Assembly (NCBI GenBank): GCA_963836075.1
Contig: CAWIIB010000001.1
Location: 608,001 to 672,000 of the forward strand
Origin: an uncultured Acidobacteriota bacterium
GTDB taxonomy: Bacteria; Acidobacteriota; JAQAZP01
Reading direction: 5' to 3'
DNA: 64,000 nt
Part shown: in pieces, positions 10,916 through 31,411 of the stretch
Position numbering within the stretch: the first letter of the stretch is position 1
Layout of the letters: every line of letters begins with the position of its first letter
Notes under the pieces: generated by a model
What the model was told of the DNA's origin: nothing
The model's database searches: none
What the model saw: the letters and a program-made list of their open reading frames with translations, nothing else
Program-made: the position numbers and the translations under genes

Positions 10916-13562
<2,647 letters not shown>

Positions 13563-13737
13563 CGGAAAGTTCCTTTCATCCGGTTACGAGTAACAGCAAC
13601 GTGGATCGACCAACCGCGACCCTCACTGCTGCCCGTGGGAAGCCCAATGATCATTTGTGCGAGGGGCGGATGTCAACCGGAGAAGCTGCCGAGACAGGAA
13701 AAATAGCCCGGGATTCCGCAATCGGGTCCGGCTTCAC

Positions 13738-13771
13738 TTTCATGGACAATAGACAGGAGAGACACTATGTT
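13738..13771 (+). promoter_or_regulatory. Candidate promoter containing the shared motif TTCATGGACAAT
   Basis: TGGACA-N17-TATGTT; the same 12-mer occurs at 16209 and a one-mismatch copy at 58262. Confidence 0.45.
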
Positions 13772-13825
13772 TAGACGTTAGCGATGAACGATCAAAGCAA
13801 CTTCAATCTCCAAATGGATGTATCG

Positions 13826-16195
13826 ATGAAGACCGCTCCGGTGCTCGGGCTGATCATTGTTTGTCTCTTCACAGTTCCGGCCACTGCAGCCACCATCCGC
13901 ATCCCCGCCGACCAGCCCACCATCCAGGCCGGGATCGATGCTGCCGCGGCCGGTGACACGGTGCTCGTGGCCGACGGCACCTGGACCGGCGGTGGCAACC
14001 AGAACATCGACTTCAAGGGCAAAGCGATTACGGTGCGGTCCGAGAATGGTCCGGCTGACTGCACCATCGACTGCGCCGAGGCAGGCCGCTACGCCTTCCG
14101 CGGATTCCTCTTCACCAACGGTGAAGGGCCGGATTCCCTGCTGCAGGGATTCCGGATCATCAATGGGGTGGTATACGGTACCTGGGATGCAAAGGGCGGC
14201 GGCATTTATGTCTCGGGCGCTTCACCGAGGATCGAAGATTGCATCATTGAATCCTGCCGTGCGTGGTACGGCGGCGGCATTTTCCTCGAGGACTCCTCGG
14301 CGGAGATTCTTAACTGCGTGATTACCGGCAACGACTCCAGCTGGGGCGGTGGTGGCATATGTTGCTTTGATACCGGGGTGCGGATCATTGGGAACAGTAT
14401 CGTCGACAATGAAGCCTATGACGCCGGGGGCGGCATCTTTTGTTACAGCAGCAGCGGTGTTGTGATCGAGGGGAACGAGATTGCCAACAACGTGGTGACC
14501 GAAATCGACTACTTTGGCGCCGGCGGCGGCATATTTTACTACTCTTCAAACACCCTGACCTTCACAAACAACGTGATCACCGGAAACAGTGCCTACCAAT
14601 CCGGAGGAGGCCTGGACTGCACCGCCGCATCCGCTATCATCAGTGGCAACACATTCGAAGATAACACTGCCCCTGCCGGCGGAGCGCTCCGCTTGCTCGG
14701 ATCTTCACCCACAGTGGAAAACAACCTCTTTGTTGCCAACCACGCCGACTGGTATGGCGGCGCCATCCACTGCCGTAACGCCTCTCCGGTCATCACCGGC
14801 TGCACCATGTCCGGCAACTCGGCGGAGACCTTTGCCGGGGCCGTGTACAGCAGTTCCAGCTCCGCACCCCTGATCACCAACTCGATCCTCTGGGGCAACA
14901 GCCCGGACCAGATCCATTTCATCGATCCCGGCATGCCCCTGGTCACCTGGTCCGACATACAGGATGGCTGGGAAGGCGAGGGCAACTTCGACGCCGCCCC
15001 GGTCTTCACCAATGGTCCCGAAGGTCTCTTCTACCTCAGCCAGATCGCCTCCGGCCAGGCCCTGGACAGCCCCTGTGTGGACTCCGGTGACCCGCTGTCC
15101 GAACTGGTCGACGGCACCACCCGCACTGATCAGCTGCCGGATTCGGGAATTGTGGACCTGGGCTATCACTACCCCTGTCCTGAAGCATGGATCCGCCTGG
15201 TCACCGGCCCCGGCGCCGGGTATGACAATCCGCCACTGGTGCGTGTCTATTTCCCGGTCCACCACGGTTCTCTGGAATACGAGTTCGCGGCGTATGGCGC
15301 TCCCCACTACGGTACGAATGTGACCTGCGGCGATATCAATGGTGACATGGTCGATGAGATCCTCACCGGGCCCGGCCCCGGGGACATCTACGGCCCCAAT
15401 GTGAGGGGCTTCAACAGCAGCGGCACTCCCCTGCCCGGCCTCAACTTTTTCGCCTACGGCACGAACAGGTTCGGTGTGAACGTGGATGCCGCAGACCTGG
15501 ACGGTGACGGCCGCGACGAGATCATCACCGGCGCCGGACCGGCAGAGGTGTTTGGTCCCCACGTCCGTGCCTGGATTTACAATGGCCCATCGGGTGTCAC
15601 ACCAATCCCGGGGGTGAGTTTCTTCGCCTACGGCACACCAAAGTGGGGCGTCAACGTGACGGCGGGTGACATTGACGGTGACGGGTTCGACGAGATCGTC
15701 ACCGGGACGGGGCCAGGAGCGGTGTACGGGCCCCATGTCCGTGGCTGGAACGTGGACGGCAACCCGTCGGTCTCAGCCATCCCCGGGGTCAGCTACTTCG
15801 CTTACGGCACCAACAGGTTCGGCGTCAACGTCAGCTGCGGCGACGTGGATGGCGACGGTATCGACGAGATCGTCACCGGCGCAGGCCCGGGCGCGGTCTT
15901 CGGCCCCCACGTCCGCGGCTGGAATTACGACGACAATGCCATTGCACCCCTGCCCGGATTCAGTTTCTTTGCCTGGAAGACCGAGCCGCTCAGCTTTGGA
16001 GTGAATGTCTTTACAGGGGTCGACCTGGATGGTGACGGCCGTGATGAACTGGTGGCGGGCCGCGGCCCTGGTCCGGACGCCGACACCGAGATCAAGGTCT
16101 TTACCTACGAAGGGACTGCGGTCAGCCAGTGGCTGTCACTGGAGGCATTCCCCGGTCTGACCCACGGAACAAATGTTGCGGCGGGGCGATTTTGA
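13826..16195 (+). CDS. Secreted parallel beta-helix protein with C-terminal FG-GAP-like propeller
   Basis: Signal peptide, QPTIQAGIDAA cap, repeated GGG(I/A)...N motifs, five DxDGD-type loops, ends THGTNVAAGRF. Confidence 0.85.
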   Translation: MKTAPVLGLIIVCLFTVPATAATIRIPADQPTIQAGIDAAAAGDTVLVADGTWTGGGNQNIDFKGKAITVRSENGPADCTIDCAEAGRYAFRGFLFTNGEGPDSLLQGFRIINGVVYGTWDAKGGGIYVSGASPRIEDCIIESCRAWYGGGIFLEDSSAEILNCVITGNDSSWGGGGICCFDTGVRIIGNSIVDNEAYDAGGGIFCYSSSGVVIEGNEIANNVVTEIDYFGAGGGIFYYSSNTLTFTNNVITGNSAYQSGGGLDCTAASAIISGNTFEDNTAPAGGALRLLGSSPTVENNLFVANHADWYGGAIHCRNASPVITGCTMSGNSAETFAGAVYSSSSSAPLITNSILWGNSPDQIHFIDPGMPLVTWSDIQDGWEGEGNFDAAPVFTNGPEGLFYLSQIASGQALDSPCVDSGDPLSELVDGTTRTDQLPDSGIVDLGYHYPCPEAWIRLVTGPGAGYDNPPLVRVYFPVHHGSLEYEFAAYGAPHYGTNVTCGDINGDMVDEILTGPGPGDIYGPNVRGFNSSGTPLPGLNFFAYGTNRFGVNVDAADLDGDGRDEIITGAGPAEVFGPHVRAWIYNGPSGVTPIPGVSFFAYGTPKWGVNVTAGDIDGDGFDEIVTGTGPGAVYGPHVRGWNVDGNPSVSAIPGVSYFAYGTNRFGVNVSCGDVDGDGIDEIVTGAGPGAVFGPHVRGWNYDDNAIAPLPGFSFFAWKTEPLSFGVNVFTGVDLDGDGRDELVAGRGPGPDADTEIKVFTYEGTAVSQWLSLEAFPGLTHGTNVAAGRF
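14990..15540 (+). repeat. Dispersed repeat, copy 1 (linker plus start of propeller)
   Basis: By eye, highly similar at DNA level to 19081-19631. Confidence 0.85.
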
Positions 16196-16298
16196 TCGGC
16201 GCGTTCAATTCATGGACAATGTCTCAGTTGAGATTTCCTGCCGTTTACCGCAGGAGCAGGTGTATAATTTCGATCAATTGCAATCATGGAGGGTGCTG

Positions 16299-17822
16299 AT
16301 GAAGAATTCGCTGACCTGTTTTGCCTGCCTTTTCTTGATCGCAGCCCTACCTTCCGTTGCCGCCACCATCAACGTCCCCGGCGACCAGCCCACCATCCAG
16401 GCGGGCATCGACCTGGCGCTGGATGGCGACACGGTGCTGGTGGCCGACGGCACGTACACCGGCGAGGGCAATTGGAATATCGACTTTCACGGAAAGGCCG
16501 TGACCCTCATCTCGGCCAACGGGCGCGACCATTGCACAATCGACCTCCAGGGCCACTGGGGTTTCCAGCTGGACAGCGGAGAGGGACCGGGCAGTGTCAT
16601 CCAGGGGTTCACCATCGCCAACGGCAGCAGATCCTTCCCCCCGGGCAGCGGCGGGGCAATCTACTGCGGGGATGCAAGCCCCAGCATCCTGGACAACTCG
16701 TTCATCGACAACGTCTCCCCGGGTGATTCGGGCGGTGCCATTGCCTGTGGGAACACCACTGTGATCCGGGGGAACTACTTCTCCGGGAACTGGTGCGATG
16801 ATGACGGTGGCGCTCTCTCCACCACTGGAGGCTCCCCACTGGTTCTGGACAATGTCTTCTATGATAATGAATCCTTCCTGAGTGGTGGGGCGATTGGCTG
16901 TTGGGGGGGATCACCGCTGATCATCAACAATCTAATCGTGGGAAACAGAACGGATTTCGAGGCCAATGATATCGGAGGAGGAGGAATCTCCTGCTACTAC
17001 GGCGCTTTTCCCGAGCTCATCAACTGCACCCTGGCGGACAATGACGCCGGGTGGATTGGTGGCGCTGTTTTTGTTGATGAGTACTCCGGAATCACCTGCA
17101 CCAACTGCGTTCTCTGGAACAACACCAGCATTATGGGGTTCGACCAGATCAGCGGAATGTCGGGAGGGATGGCCCTCGTCGAATATTCCGACGTGATGGG
17201 CGGCTGGAGCGGCACCGGCAACATCGACAGCGACCCCCTCTTTGTCACCGGGCCCGGCGGAGACTACCTGCTGTCCCAGACCAGCGCCGGCCAGGCCGTG
17301 GACAGCCCCTGTCTCGACACCGGCAATGGTCCTGCTGATGACGTCTGCTACCAGGAGAACGGCTGGTGGACTTGCCTCCACCAGCTCACCACCCGCAGCG
17401 ACCGTATCCGCGACCTGGGCACGGTGGATATGGGCTACCACGCCGCGGCCTGGAGCTCGGTGGGTGCGTCGTTCACCTGCACTCCCGCTTCGGGCACCCT
17501 GCCCTTCAGCAGCCTGATGACCGCCACCCTGTTCAACCACTACCCCGATATGACCCGGAAGATTGCCGCCCGCATCGACATCGACCTGGCCGGCGGGGCG
17601 AGCTTCGCCTCCTGGCGTGCCGGTTATACCAACATCGCCGGCGGCAGCAACCATGTGCGGAGCTGGATGCAGTATTTGCCCCCGTATGCCACCTTGCGGG
17701 GAGACAATCGGTTCACGCTCATTGCCGAGGATGTGACGCCGGCGCCCTACAACCAGCCGCCCTACCCGCCGGCCGGTTCCAGCGCGTATGATCTCATCAC
17801 GGTGACCGGCTACGCTCCATAG
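16299..17822 (+). CDS. Secreted parallel beta-helix protein with an alternative ~120-aa C-terminal domain
   Basis: Same cap and linker as its neighbours; ends ...EDVTPAPYNQPPYPPAG...GYAP; TATAAT and GGAGG upstream. Confidence 0.82.
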   Translation: MKNSLTCFACLFLIAALPSVAATINVPGDQPTIQAGIDLALDGDTVLVADGTYTGEGNWNIDFHGKAVTLISANGRDHCTIDLQGHWGFQLDSGEGPGSVIQGFTIANGSRSFPPGSGGAIYCGDASPSILDNSFIDNVSPGDSGGAIACGNTTVIRGNYFSGNWCDDDGGALSTTGGSPLVLDNVFYDNESFLSGGAIGCWGGSPLIINNLIVGNRTDFEANDIGGGGISCYYGAFPELINCTLADNDAGWIGGAVFVDEYSGITCTNCVLWNNTSIMGFDQISGMSGGMALVEYSDVMGGWSGTGNIDSDPLFVTGPGGDYLLSQTSAGQAVDSPCLDTGNGPADDVCYQENGWWTCLHQLTTRSDRIRDLGTVDMGYHAAAWSSVGASFTCTPASGTLPFSSLMTATLFNHYPDMTRKIAARIDIDLAGGASFASWRAGYTNIAGGSNHVRSWMQYLPPYATLRGDNRFTLIAEDVTPAPYNQPPYPPAGSSAYDLITVTGYAP

Positions 17823-17849
17823 TCCTGCGATTTTCCGCAAGGAGTTTAC

Positions 17850-20280
17850 ATGGCGAGGTGGATCAGAACCGCCATCCCGACCCTCCTGCTGGGAATTGTC
17901 TGTCTCCCGGCCCATGCCGCCACCATCCACGTCCCCGCCGACCAGCCCACCATCCAGGCCGGTATCGATGCCGCCGCGGCCGGTGACACGGTGCTCGTGG
18001 CCGACGGCACGTACACCGGTGAAGGGAACCGGGACATCGAGTTCCGGGGGGAACCGATCACCGTCCGCTCCGAAAACGGGCCGGAGTACCTGCACCATCG
18101 ACTGCAACTCCTCCCCGACCAATCCGCACCAGGGCTTCCGCATCGTCTCGGGCGAGGGGGCGGGCACGTTGCTGCAGGGGTTCACGATCATCAACGGGAT
18201 GGGGGGGGGCCACGGGACGGGGGAAGGCGGGGCCGTCTACGCCTATGCTTCTGCGATCACTGTCGAATTCTGCATCATCGAGTCCAGCAGGGCCTCACGG
18301 GGTGGCGGCATCTACGCCCTGCTCGCAACGGTGAACGTCCTCGACTGCCGTATCGAGGGATGCACCGGTTGTGGAATTTACTGTCACAGTTGTGAAGGCA
18401 TAATCTCCGGCAACACCATCACCGACAACACCGGCGGCCTCGGCGCCGGCCTCCACAGTTCTTTCAGCCGCTTCCTGATCTCGGAGAACACCATCACCGC
18501 CAATACAACTTACAATGGTGGGGGCGGGATCTACTGCACCGGCGGGATCGGCACCGATATCGTCAACAATACCATCGCCGACAACTATGCCGAAACTTTT
18601 GCCAAGACGGGAGGAAACGGCATCCTCTGCCAAACCGCGGATGGCCTGAGGATCGCCGACAACGTGATCACCGGCAATACTGGTTACAGTTACGGCGGAG
18701 GGATCAGCTGCGAGTATTCATCACCGGTCATCGAGGGCAACCGAATCCAGGGGAATACGGCATTCATGGGCGGAGCGGTGAGGGTGCTTCACAACTCCCC
18801 CCTACTGAAGAACAACCTGATGACCGGGAATCATGTCAGCGGGTATGGCGGCGCGGTCCACTGCCTGTACGCCGCGCCCCGGATCGAGGGCTGCACCATG
18901 GCCGACAATCACGCCGACACCACGGCCGGTGCTGTGTACTGCAATGCGGGATCCACAGCGGTCATCACCGAATCGATCCTCTGGGGCAACACCCCGGACC
19001 AGATCCGCACCATCGAACCGGGCGAAGCAAATCTCTCCTGGTGCGACATCGAGGGCGGCTGGCCGGGCAAGAACAACATCGACGCCGACCCGGTCTTCAC
19101 CAACGGTCCCGAAGGTCTCTTCTACCTCAGCCAGATCGCCTCCGGCCAGGCCCTGGACAGCCCGTGCATCGACTCCGGTGATCCGCTGTCCGAACTGGTC
19201 GACGGCACCACCCGCACCGACCAGGTGCCGGATTCGGGAACTGTGGACCTCGGCTATCACTATCCCTGTCCTGAAGCATGGATACGCCTGGTCACCGGCC
19301 CCGGAGCCGGGTATGACAATCCGCCACTGGTGCGTGTCTATTTCCCGGTCCACCACGGTCCCATGGAATACGAGTTCTCGGCCTATGGCGCTCCCCACCA
19401 CGGTACGAATGTGACCTGCGGCAATGTCAATGGTGACATAGTCGATGAGATCCTCACCGGGCCCGGCCCCGGGAACATCTACGGTCCCCATGTAAGGGGC
19501 TTCAACAGCAGCGGCACTCCCCTGCCCGGCCTCAACTTCCTCGCCTACGGCACGAACAAGTTCGGAGTGAACGTGGCCGCCGGCGACCTGGACGGTGACG
19601 GACGTGACGAGGTCATCACCGGCGCCGGACCCGGCACTGTCTTTGGCCCACACGTCCGCGGCTGGACCTACGACAACACCGCCGTCACCCCGATGCCCGG
19701 CGTCAACTACTTCGCCTATGGCACCCCCAAGTGGGGCGTGAATGTTGCTGCGGGCGACATCGACGGCGACGGTTTTGACGAGATCGTCACCGGAGCGGGC
19801 CCCGGAGCGGTGTTCGGCCCCCATGTCCGGGGCTGGAATGCGGACGGCGGAGAAGTCACCGCCATTCCCGCAGTCAGCTTCTTCGCATACGGCACACTGA
19901 AGTTCGGCGTCAATGTCAGCTGCGGCGACGTGGACGGCGACGGTATGGACGAAATCGTCACCGGTGCCGGTCCGGGCGAGAATTTCGGTCCCCACGTCCG
20001 AGGCTGGAACTACGACGGCGACGCCGTCACTCCCCTGTCGGACTTCAGTTTCTTTGCCTGGCTGACCGGTTCCCAGAGCTACGGGGTCAACGTCTTTACC
20101 GGCACCGACATCAACGGCGACGGCCTCGACGACGTGATCGCCGGCCGCGGCCCCGATCCGGAGGCTGATACCCAGGTCAAGGTCTTCAGCTACTTCCAGG
20201 GCGAGGTGGTGGAGTGGATGGCTATCGACGCCTTCGAGGGAATGACCCACGGTACGAACGTGGCGGCGGGACGATTCTGA
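17850..20280 (+). CDS. Secreted parallel beta-helix protein with C-terminal FG-GAP-like propeller (frameshift near 18089)
   Basis: ORFs 17850 and 17896 join on removing one C; paralog of the 13826 gene. Confidence 0.82.
19081..19631 (+). repeat. Dispersed repeat, copy 2
   Basis: By eye, highly similar at DNA level to 14990-15540. Confidence 0.85.
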
Positions 20281-20291
20281 ATCCATAAAAA

Positions 20292-20316
20292 TGGCGAGCC
20301 CAATGGGATTTGAACC
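20292..20316 (-). other. Orphan tRNA 3'-end fragment (att-like scar)
   Basis: Minus strand GG-TTCAAAT-CCCAT-TGGGCTC-G-CCA has the exact T-loop/T-stem/acceptor/discriminator/CCA spacing; the 5' part is absent (recX lies there). Confidence 0.7.
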
Positions 20317-20318
20317 GG

Positions 20319-20831
20319 TCACCAGTCCAGCAGGTCGGGGAACTCCCGGGCCAGGTGGGACCTGACCGCGTCGGGCGGGTGGCCGTTGTTGGCCAGGTGC
20401 CGCATCAGGCGGACCAGGCCCTTGCGGTTCTTCGGCCGGCCGCCCACCCTGAGCCGCTTCTCCAGCGCCCGCTGCAGGATGGCATCCCGGCCCCCGGCCT
20501 CCAGCTGAGCCTCCTCCGCCGCTTCGGCTGCAACGACCTCGTCCACGCCCAGACGGCCCAGTTCCAGCAGCACCCGTCGCATCCCCTGGTTGCGGTGGAC
20601 AAAGCGGCTGCGGGCGGCCTCGCCGGCAAAGCGGCGGTCGTCCAGCAACCGCTGCTCCTTCAGCCGCACCAGCACCCGGGCCACTGTGTGCGGATCCCCC
20701 GGGCCTGCAGCTCGGGTGCCGGCTTCCAGGCGCGTGCGCAGCTCGGCCTCGGAACGCATCCGTACAGCCAGCAGCTTCACCGCCCGGGTATAGAGCGCGG
20801 CATAGGTGTCCTCACCCTTTTCCTGGTTCAT
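20319..20831 (-). CDS. recX: Regulatory protein RecX
   Basis: AVKLLAVRMRSEAELRTRL, LLDDRRFA, ELGRLGV; position between pilT and alaS. Confidence 0.8.
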   Translation of the reverse strand: MNQEKGEDTYAALYTRAVKLLAVRMRSEAELRTRLEAGTRAAGPGDPHTVARVLVRLKEQRLLDDRRFAGEAARSRFVHRNQGMRRVLLELGRLGVDEVVAAEAAEEAQLEAGGRDAILQRALEKRLRVGGRPKNRKGLVRLMRHLANNGHPPDAVRSHLAREFPDLLDW

Positions 20832-20887
20832 GAATCAGAGGATATCACGCGCGGCGGCAGGCAGCGCAAGGGGCTGCGCGGCCCGGA

Positions 20888-22033
20888 TCAGCCGCCGGCC
20901 TTCATCTGCTCGGCTTCCTGGGCCAGCATCCGCTCGGCCACCTCGGCACCGAGGTCGGAGGTCGACTGGATGCCCTGAATCTTCAGCCTGAACTCGTCGG
21001 GCCGGGTCGTCCGCTTGATCGCTTCCTCCACCGTGATCATCCCCTGCTTGTAGAGGTGGAACAGCGACTGGTCAAAGGTCTGCATGCCGTACTGCGAGAC
21101 GCCGGCGGCGATGGCATCGTGGATCAGTTTGGTCTTATCCGGGTCCTCGATGCAGTCGCGGATATAGTTGGTGGCGATCAGCGCCTCCACCGCCGGCACC
21201 CGACCCTCCTTGTCCGCCCGGGGCAGCAGCCGCATGGAGATCACCGCCTTGAGCACGGCGGCCAGCTGCAGCCGGATCTGCTGCTGCTGGTGCGGCGGGA
21301 ACATGGCGATGATGCGGTTTATCGTCTCGGTGGCATCGAGGGTGTGCAGGGTGCTGAAGACCAGGTGACCGGTCTCGGCGGCCAGCAGGGCAGTCTCGAT
21401 GGTCTCGTAGTCCCGCATCTCCCCCACCAGGATCACGTCGGGGTCCTGGCGCAGGGCGCTGCGCAGGGCGCAGGAGAAGTTGCGGGTGTCCACGTCGATC
21501 TCCCGCTGGTTGACCAGGCTCCGCTTGTCGCGGTGCAGGAACTCGATGGGGTCCTCGATGGTCATGATGTGTTCGCTGCGCGTGGCGTTGATGTGGTCCA
21601 CCATGGCGGCCAGCGAAGTGGACTTGCCGCTGCCGGTGGTTCCGGTGACCAGCACCATGCCCCGCTTCTCCTGGCAGACCTTTTTCAGCACCGTGGGCAG
21701 GTTGAGGGCCTCGATGCTGAGGATCTTCACCGGGATCACCCGGAAGACCATGCCCACCGTGCCCCGCTGCTGGAACATGTTGCAGCGGAAGCGGCCCAGT
21801 CCGGCTACGGAATGGGCCATGTCGATCTCCAGGTTTTTCTTGAACCGTTCCTTCTGCCGGTCGTTCATGATGCTCGAGGCAATGGCCACGGTGTCTTCCG
21901 AGAGCAGGCGCTTGATGTCCACCAGCGGAAAGAGGTCTCCGTTGATCCGGATCACCGGATGCTGGCCCACCTTGAGGTGAACGTCCGAGGCATTGCGTTC
22001 GATGGCCATTTTCAGCAGGTCGTTGATGTGCAC
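20888..22033 (-). CDS. pilT: Type IV pilus retraction ATPase, PilT/PilU family
   Basis: ASDVHL, GTTGSGKST, TIEDPIE, LRQDPDVILVGEMRD, AAETGHLVFSTLHT, GMQTFDQ. Confidence 0.9.
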   Translation of the reverse strand: MHINDLLKMAIERNASDVHLKVGQHPVIRINGDLFPLVDIKRLLSEDTVAIASSIMNDRQKERFKKNLEIDMAHSVAGLGRFRCNMFQQRGTVGMVFRVIPVKILSIEALNLPTVLKKVCQEKRGMVLVTGTTGSGKSTSLAAMVDHINATRSEHIMTIEDPIEFLHRDKRSLVNQREIDVDTRNFSCALRSALRQDPDVILVGEMRDYETIETALLAAETGHLVFSTLHTLDATETINRIIAMFPPHQQQQIRLQLAAVLKAVISMRLLPRADKEGRVPAVEALIATNYIRDCIEDPDKTKLIHDAIAAGVSQYGMQTFDQSLFHLYKQGMITVEEAIKRTTRPDEFRLKIQGIQSTSDLGAEVAERMLAQEAEQMKAGG

Positions 22034-31335: not shown

Positions 31336-31411
31336 TGGAGCGGGCAACGGGGATCGAACCCGCGACCCCAAGCTTGGGAAGCTTGTACTCTACCAACTGA
31401 GCTACGCCCGC
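31336..31411 (-). tRNA. tRNA-Gly(CCC)
   Basis: GCGGGCGTAGCTCAGTTGGTAGAG...CAAGC TT CCC AA GCTTG...GGTTCGATCCC...GCCCGCTCCA, 76 nt. Confidence 0.97.

Follow-up and report, generated by a model that had tools for sequence, protein, structure and literature searches.

In an uncultured member of the Acidobacteriota, the conserved genes recX and alaS are separated by three opposite-strand genes for beta-helix and FG-GAP proteins, and the stop codon of recX is directly followed by an orphan 3' end of tRNA-Glu(UUC). On balance, this fragment is probably the junction scar of a site-specific integration at a secondary site. The locus lies in a 64,000-nt stretch of assembly GCA_963836075.1 (contig CAWIIB010000001.1, positions 608,001 to 672,000), here called the window; positions outside it carry the name of their genome. 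The class consists of three genomes of one genus, namely the source genome (G000; 6.23 Mb in 10 contigs) and the sister genomes G001, whose assembly is 91% complete, and G002.

The tRNA-Glu tail behind recX

The recX stop codon (TGA, 20319-20321, minus strand) is immediately followed by CCGGTTCAAATCCCATTGGGCTCGCCA (20318-20292) and then by TTTTT. The spacing of this 27-mer is that of a tRNA end, with a 7-nt T-loop, a 5-nt T-stem, a 7-nt acceptor strand, the discriminator base, and CCA. The initial annotation of the window had described a tRNA 3' end with exact spacing and no 5' half, and this description is confirmed at 20292-20318 of the minus strand, with the T-run behind it. Among the 3' ends of all 55 genes called by ARAGORN in G000, the closest is that of tRNA-Glu(ttc) at G000 C9:3137969-3138045, which differs at 3 of 27 positions (24/27 identical); the second-best tRNA has 7 mismatches (20/27). 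The full-length tRNA that the annotation had expected somewhere in the genome is therefore tRNA-Glu(UUC). The annotation also rightly set the piece apart from tRNA-Gly(ccc) at 31336-31411, the only ARAGORN call in the window, which lies 11 kb off, is unrelated, and differs from the 27-mer at 9 of 27 positions.

A generic tRNA-end motif occurs at 50 sites in G000, 43 of them in genes for tRNAs or tmRNA. Three of the seven sites elsewhere are near-identical, namely the piece in the window and two pieces designated C9a (G000 C9:1393263-1393287) and C9b (G000 C9:926728-926752), to both of which the window tail is identical at 24 of 25 positions. Sequences resembling a T-loop are common (292 GGTTCRANYC sites in G000), which would speak for a chance resemblance in a short spacer, but a nhmmer profile of the copies finds the window piece genome-wide at E=1.6e-9. 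The same search returned four sites in G000 at E<=2.8e-9, with the next match only at E=0.04; because of this gap, the tail is considered real and beyond chance. Given also the identity to two other copies and the empty result of a reversed control pattern (see below), a chance origin has a negligible probability and is counted as refuted. By comparison with the tRNA genes of its own genome, the tail behind recX is shown to derive from tRNA-Glu(UUC).

There is no whole tRNA at this site. A search of 13400-20900 with Rfam gave no match to a tRNA at a threshold as lenient as E<=10, and the 60 nt upstream of the fragment bear no likeness to a tRNA body (P=0.11). A tRNA or tRNA-like RNA was rejected on the negative results of ARAGORN and Rfam and on a fold no better than that of shuffled sequences (z -0.1; z 0.37). 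An intrinsic terminator was rejected as well, as no hairpin with T-run was called at 20280-20330 (fold z 0.37). It is also very improbable that a tRNA-Glu gene formerly occupied the space between recX and alaS and left the tail as its remnant after decaying there. A whole decayed copy of tRNA-Glu does exist elsewhere in G000 (C9:926728), but the recX stop abuts nucleotide 49 of the T-stem, so that the body of the tRNA would fall inside recX, and the sequence upstream of the tail is not tRNA-like. Moreover, no tRNA gene was found in 19 related recX loci, where the gaps measure about 30-200 nt.

The slot between recX and alaS

The partial copy of the tRNA 3' end (20287-20318 with its T-run) stands at the border of an insertion. 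Of 17 distant recX loci from other families of the same phylum, 12 have alaS downstream on the recX strand, 11 of them at a distance of no more than about 200 nt (gaps of about 30-200 nt), and 13 have pilT upstream of recX. The order pilT-recX-alaS is shown by this comparison of gene neighbourhoods to be the older arrangement, in which the beta-helix/FG-GAP genes have evidently split a pair; the genes in the slot are therefore an insertion. One distant relative (L013) has about 1.2 kb between recX and alaS, which may be another insertion in the same place.

The features of the locus in G000 are as follows.

10916..13562, minus strand: alaS, in two overlapping frames with a switch near 12190-12195 (Pfam tRNA-synt_2c, tRNA_SAD, DHHA1; tblastn frames -1 and -2)
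13647..13676, minus strand: predicted alaS promoter, TTGACA, 18-nt spacer, GATCAT (10/12 hexamer matches; kept in G000, G001, and G002)
13784..16195, plus strand: orf1, predicted secreted beta-helix and FG-GAP protein, divergent from alaS (Pfam; signal-like N-terminus)
16173..17822, plus strand: orf2, beta-helix protein without the FG-GAP part (Pfam Beta_helix; best match in a sister genome 55%)
17850..20280, plus strand: orf3, predicted secreted right-handed beta-helix with FG-GAP propeller, adjoining recX (Pfam Beta_helix, NosD, FG-GAP)
20281..20286, no strand: rest of the 11-nt spacer between the CCA of the fragment and the stop of the convergent orf3 (reading of the sequence)
20292-20318, with TTTTT at 20287-20291, minus strand: orphan tRNA-Glu(UUC) 3' end, comprising T-stem/T-loop, 3' acceptor strand, discriminator, and CCA, without a 5' half
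20319..20831, minus strand: recX (Pfam RecX_HTH1, RecX_HTH2; 77% and 72% identical to the sister species)
20888..22033, minus strand: pilT-like type II/IV secretion ATPase, not recA, upstream of recX (Pfam T2SSE)

In all three genomes of the class, recX and alaS are separated by one or more opposite-strand beta-helix/FG-GAP genes: G000 has three within 6.76 kb, G001 a single family gene of 858 amino acids in a gap of 2.86 kb, and G002, whose slot is interrupted by a contig break, at least one on either side of the break. The slot genes of the three species are only 44-50% identical, compared with 72-95% for the flanking recX, pilT, and alaS, and none of orf1 to orf3 has a full-length match of >=70% in the sister genomes. 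In G001, the junction behind recX reads GCCGGTTCGGATCCTCCC, which agrees with the first 13 bases of the fragment at 11 of 13 positions and stands in the same place; the decayed 13-nt relic of the tail is CCGGTTCGGATCC. In G002, the stop codons of recX and the slot gene overlap, and no remnant of the tail is left. The opposite-strand insertion between recX and alaS that the annotation had proposed is thus borne out, but it is old or recurrent rather than the recent arrival of a unit of ~6.6 kb, because the slot is filled in all three species with differing genes and contains a tandem pair in G000. This pair consists of orf1 and orf3, which are 75.7% identical over residues 319-803 (the C-terminal part) and by this measure represent a tandem duplication.

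The reading frames of the locus call for some corrections. The start of orf1 is likely the ATG before the signal peptide, near 13827. The coding sequence of orf3 is distributed over two frames (17850-18395 and 17896-20280), with the ATG at 17850 and a switch near 18089; its N-terminus, with signal peptide and family motif, belongs to the frame starting at 17850. One base at position 18089 is absent from the contigs of all three metagenome runs that cover it, which suggests that the frame switch is an assembly error. The two alaS frames of G000 (12126-13562 and 10916-12229) overlap, and there is a single long frame in both G001 and G002; an assembly indel is more likely than a real frameshift in an essential gene.

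At the alaS side, the annotation had matched GGATGTCAACCGG (13668-13680) to the fragment as the second copy of an attachment site. The match exists, at 11 of 13 positions, but it overlaps the -35 hexamer TTGACA of the alaS promoter and is not significant: the window holds 3 matches of this level apart from the fragment itself, where 1.79 would be expected, a total that is attained in 11 of 100 shuffles. When the fragment was aligned locally with the spacer between alaS and orf1, P was about 0.04-0.07, and the top match was a different 9-mer. The promoter is kept in the three species, and the DNA farther upstream is unalignable. As the match is no better than chance and coincides with a conserved promoter, 13668-13680 was rejected as an attachment-site copy. 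The arithmetic of the empty recX-alaS site that the annotation had proposed from these borders is right. The leader of alaS (13590-13660) contains CATTGGGCT, which is also conserved in G001 and G002 and exactly matches 9 bases of the fragment; this match is probably a coincidence (P about 0.04-0.07).

Orphan tails in the genus

A census of the three genomes with the 25-mer (<=2 mismatches) found nine places, four in G000, two in G001, and three in G002; the reversed pattern used as a control found none. Two of the nine are whole tRNA genes in the tRNA-Lys/tRNA-Glu pairs of G000 and G002, which leaves seven orphans. In six of them, the 60 nt upstream are unlike a tRNA body (P 0.017-0.60), and the likeness to tRNA-Glu extends from nucleotides 49-52 of the T-stem (start read by eye) to 4-13 bases past the CCA; C9a is one of these tail-only copies. 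The seventh is C9b, a complete but decayed second copy of tRNA-Glu (G000 C9:926728-926805, L032), in which 8 nt of the upstream flank of the real gene and a diverged body precede 25 bases at the 3' end that are identical to C9a; ARAGORN is silent at this locus.

Synteny maps against G000 place the tail-only copies at breakpoints between species. The fragment has the same polarity, conserved DNA lying 5' and variable DNA 3' of it, in the window, at G002:C114, at G001:C336, and at the C9a locus in both G000 and G002. At G002:C114, the counterpart of G000 C9:1588221-1581597 is followed by the fragment, the terminator of tRNA-Glu, two FG-GAP_3 genes, and the counterpart of G000 C9:1581553-1577637. 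The insert of 3.3 kb is 79% identical to G000 C9:3138019-3141309, and its empty site is preserved in G000 (C9:1581597 and 1581553), where a few tens of bases separate two convergent genes. The segment itself lies directly behind the intact tRNA-Glu gene in G000; the tRNA-Glu locus of G002 lacks it, and no orthologue was found in G001 (best match 46%). On this comparison, the same DNA is located at the tRNA in G000 and at a secondary site together with a tRNA tail in G002.

At the C9a locus of G000, a conserved block is followed by the full fragment, a stretch of 3.4 kb with HepT-MNT and a family gene, a degenerate copy ending in …GGCTCGCCATTATT, and a response-regulator/kinase pair. The counterpart in G001 has one intact copy 22 nt from the response-regulator gene and a HipBA module on the other side. 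In G002, the conserved block and the fragment are followed after 14 nt by the stop of a family gene whose G000 orthologue is located near tRNA-Glu. At G001:C336, the fragment lies between a syntenic peptidase gene and genes for a DUF4143 ATPase and a family protein, which G000 lacks at this place. The bases behind the CCA of the window fragment, TTATGGAT, look similar, by eye, to those flanking the degenerate copy at G000 C9:1396728-1396741. Toxin-antitoxin modules stand beside orthologous tails, on opposite sides: HepT with a presumed MNT in G000 (C9:1393381-1394140, L025) and HipA with a helix-turn-helix (HTH) protein in G001 (L037:7954-9611). In gene order and sequence, the recurrence and the polarity of the orphan tails in the genus are shown.

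The inserted genes belong to a large family, with 132 genes in G000 that share the C-terminus of orf1 and orf3; in either sister genome, 64-68 matches reach E<=1e-100. In both G000 and G002, tRNA-Glu adjoins an array of such genes. This neighbourhood, together with the failure to find an integrase or a second repeat, would also suit an origin of the tail as the passenger of a family gene that stood tail-to-tail with tRNA-Glu, was duplicated with its 3' flank, and was pasted behind recX in a manner that was not site-specific and never involved an integrase. In keeping with such an origin, two orphans (window, 11 nt; G002:C17, 14 nt) abut the stops of family genes, where 0.3-1.3 would be expected, and the close paralogues of orf3 include the gene beside C9a (61%) and the G000 orthologue (58%) of the gene at G002:C17. 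However, the same T-stem boundary recurs beside differing DNA (a terminator with FG-GAP_3 genes, a DUF4143 ATPase, HepT, a response regulator), and the spacers behind the CCA vary among the copies. At about 60% protein identity, a copied flank should be unrecognisable, but the piece is intact at 24 of 25 positions. The fragment is also absent from 131 of the 132 family genes; only orf3 has one within 250 nt of its stop (expected 0.3-1.3), so that it was rejected as a general mark of family genes or of a cassette. The array next to tRNA-Glu contains no degenerate copies of the tail. An origin as a passenger flank is considered unlikely.

The orphans are better kept than neutral scars. C9a of G000 and its positional orthologue in G001 (L028) are identical at 29 of 29 positions, comprising the 25-mer and TTTT, and have about 20 nt of upstream flank in common, whereas identity between species at the four-fold sites of pilT and alaS is only 0.71-0.78 and the spacers are unalignable; the neutral expectation for such an identity is roughly 0.75^29, or about 2e-4. 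All five orphans of G000 and G001 contain GGGCTCG in place of the GGGGTCG of tRNA-Glu in G000 and G002. The variant was encountered at two loci in species-representative genomes, neither of them a tRNA gene, and in no whole tRNA gene. Since the body of tRNA-Glu was not found in the incomplete assembly of G001, GGGCTCG may or may not be the real tRNA sequence of that species. The conservation could result from gene conversion, from repeated recombination at these sites, or from a function, for example in termination.

These observations would favour a maintained functional element, either re-usable landing pads of a trans-acting recombinase or a tRNA-derived minihelix or terminator at gene ends. 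Acceptor/T-arm hairpins are predicted to fold in one copy of G002 (L033, z -4.7) and one of G001 (L031, z -3.5), and the helix of C9a (G000 C9:1393240-1393287) is kept by a two-sided change relative to L033. Inspection by eye places at least three of the six 3'-only copies (window, L031, L035) no farther than 45 nt from the stop codon of a gene in the same orientation and finds T-runs behind all six. On the other side, the window copy does not fold and has no called terminator, the copy behind recX was lost in G001 and G002, and the helix pairing of the six copies pooled (64.1%) is no better than that of shuffled sequences (62.9%; 191 of 500 shuffles as high), on which grounds a minihelix common to all copies was rejected. 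The probability of a maintained function is accordingly low. In L033 itself (G002:C17:52794-52818), the T-arm is joined directly to the 5' acceptor strand of tRNA-Glu, as in a tRNA from which nucleotides 8-48 are missing.

A specific form of such maintenance, to which we likewise give little credence, would be an integron-like system in which the orphan tails serve as landing pads and a recombinase in trans shuffles beta-helix/FG-GAP cassettes and chromosome segments. Some of the copies would then fold like acceptor/T-arm minihelices. A landing-pad role would explain the identity between species despite a divergence of about 25% at neutral sites, the shared variant that is absent from real tRNA genes, and the location at synteny breakpoints.

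Probable integration at a secondary site

The attP sites of tyrosine integrases that target tRNA genes carry a copy of the tRNA 3' end. In the favoured explanation by site-specific integration, the incoming DNA would have carried such a copy of tRNA-Glu(UUC), from the T-stem to the CCA and a few T, as its attP. A crossover in the T-loop region between this copy and a secondary site immediately after the stop codon of recX would have split the recX-alaS pair and left a junction of the attL type, consisting of host DNA, the crossover, and the element-borne tRNA tail. A junction of this type accounts for the abrupt beginning of the tRNA likeness in the T-stem and for the position of the inserted genes on the 3' side; the other junction would share only a few bases of the crossover, which fits the lack of a second repeat. 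The cargo would be members of the secreted beta-helix/FG-GAP family, whose expansion in this lineage is very large. The slot would have been filled first before the three species split, or hit repeatedly, and its content would have turned over, with tandem duplication. We infer the recombinase, the crossover point, and the timing. Because no integrase remains, the tail is today probably a scar without activity and at most a dormant site of recombination.

The event would be of a known kind, because partial tRNAs at the borders of integrated or degenerate elements are well known. The ends of islands are marked by a regenerated tRNA and a displaced fragment, according to the description of the Islander approach (PMC4383910), and partial tRNAs flank integrated elements in islands in which degenerate remnants with additional partial tRNAs accumulate, as outlined for Prochlorococcus (bioRxiv 10.1101/2020.12.28.424599). 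Like the islands in tRNA genes generated by tyrosine integrases, as far as the Islander account goes (PMC4383910), the locus behind recX has a partial copy of a tRNA 3' end at the border of the insert and a block of identity that runs from the stem-loop to just past the CCA, and tRNA-Glu adjoins an array of accessory genes. Unlike these islands, it contains neither an intact tRNA nor an integrase and has a single copy of the repeat; the target was a spacer behind recX rather than a tRNA gene, and the insertion is common to all known species of the class.

The resemblance to the tycheposon-type islands, in the portion of their description considered here (bioRxiv 10.1101/2020.12.28.424599), lies in the flanking partial tRNAs, in the remnants that lack integrases and accompany partial tRNAs in variable regions, and in a cargo that is adaptive and lineage-specific. 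By contrast, the partial tRNAs of tycheposons adjoin a full tRNA in islands and many of the elements keep their integrases, whereas the orphans of this genus of Acidobacteriota are dispersed at single sites without integrases. The cis-mobilizable elements (CIMEs) of streptococci, in the aspects covered by the accounts consulted (PMC5704250, PMC7563491), are likewise integrase-less DNA bounded by attachment sites that can be moved only by a recombinase in trans. They differ from the recX slot in keeping both attL and attR and in having parental integrative and conjugative elements (ICEs) at the same site; the slot shows one recognisable junction, and no parent element was found.

As the annotation had stated, the cargo lacks an integrase: the Pfam scan of the cluster returned beta-helix/FG-GAP proteins alone, and no integrase was found in the window or beside any orphan. 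The four matches to PF00589 in G000 are at C1:206541, C9:572455, C9:1280867, and C9:1338110. The match at C9:572455-573024 (L041:10414-11736) is part of an open reading frame (ORF) for a tyrosine integrase of 440 amino acids (open frame of 451 amino acids) at the edge of a region of low GC content (0.45-0.58); this region, in the 10 kb to the right of the integrase, is a probable separate integrated element. An autonomous element with the same attachment site was not found beside the seven orphans in the three genomes, and the only copy linked to an integrase is in an unrelated viral contig (L060), where an orphan with the same 25 bases of tRNA-Glu stands at a distance of about 800 nt from a tyrosine integrase of 388 amino acids. 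This contig is an independent precedent for the proposed mechanism. Crossover in tRNA genes reportedly falls into sublocation classes (Williams, 2002). The viral copy differs from the orphans in that it reaches back to the anticodon loop, which is another sublocation, and the viral integrase is not close to the 440-amino-acid ORF of G000.

Several observations weigh against integration at a secondary site. A search with PF00589 detected no tyrosine recombinase near any of the seven orphans. No second copy of the tail was found at the alaS border by profile search or local alignment, and the right-hand borders of the G001 and G002 inserts have none either. The composition of the cluster carries no foreign mark: its GC content at third codon positions (GC3; 0.75-0.79) is below that of the neighbours (0.86-0.91) but within the range of the genome (mean 0.82, standard deviation 0.08). 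The window tail is nearly intact although the insertion is old and the copy in G001 has decayed; a neutral scar should drift. There is also no empty recX-alaS site in any near relative, since the class holds only three genomes, all of them filled, and a metagenome scan with RecX for closer relatives yielded one distant locus (34% identity). Contigs from four Logan metagenome runs, whose pieces of 180-858 nt at low depth are too short to reveal an empty site or an excision joint, showed no joint from ~13675 to ~20318 among the 15 listed of 187; one weak joint from 13564 to 17916 is present in one run (side of 30 letters), and two contigs cease to match at 20280, with 13 and 41 letters beyond. 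The empty site anticipated by the annotation was therefore not seen in near relatives or metagenome contigs, and the pair is intact in 11 of the 17 distant relatives. Of its secondary-site integration, the tRNA-Glu tail, the insertion into a conserved gene order, and the same polarity at other places speak in favour, whereas the repeat and the empty site are missing.

In this little-known class of uncultured Acidobacteriota, a conserved housekeeping pair has been split by accessory genes for surface proteins, and tRNA-Glu tails are probable marks of this genome plasticity. If the tails are not re-used, they represent ordinary integration scars that are mainly useful for annotating the borders of islands. 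If they are re-used sites, they would provide a route by which more than 100 genes for secreted beta-helix/FG-GAP proteins per genome could spread and be reshuffled without resident genes of mobile elements.

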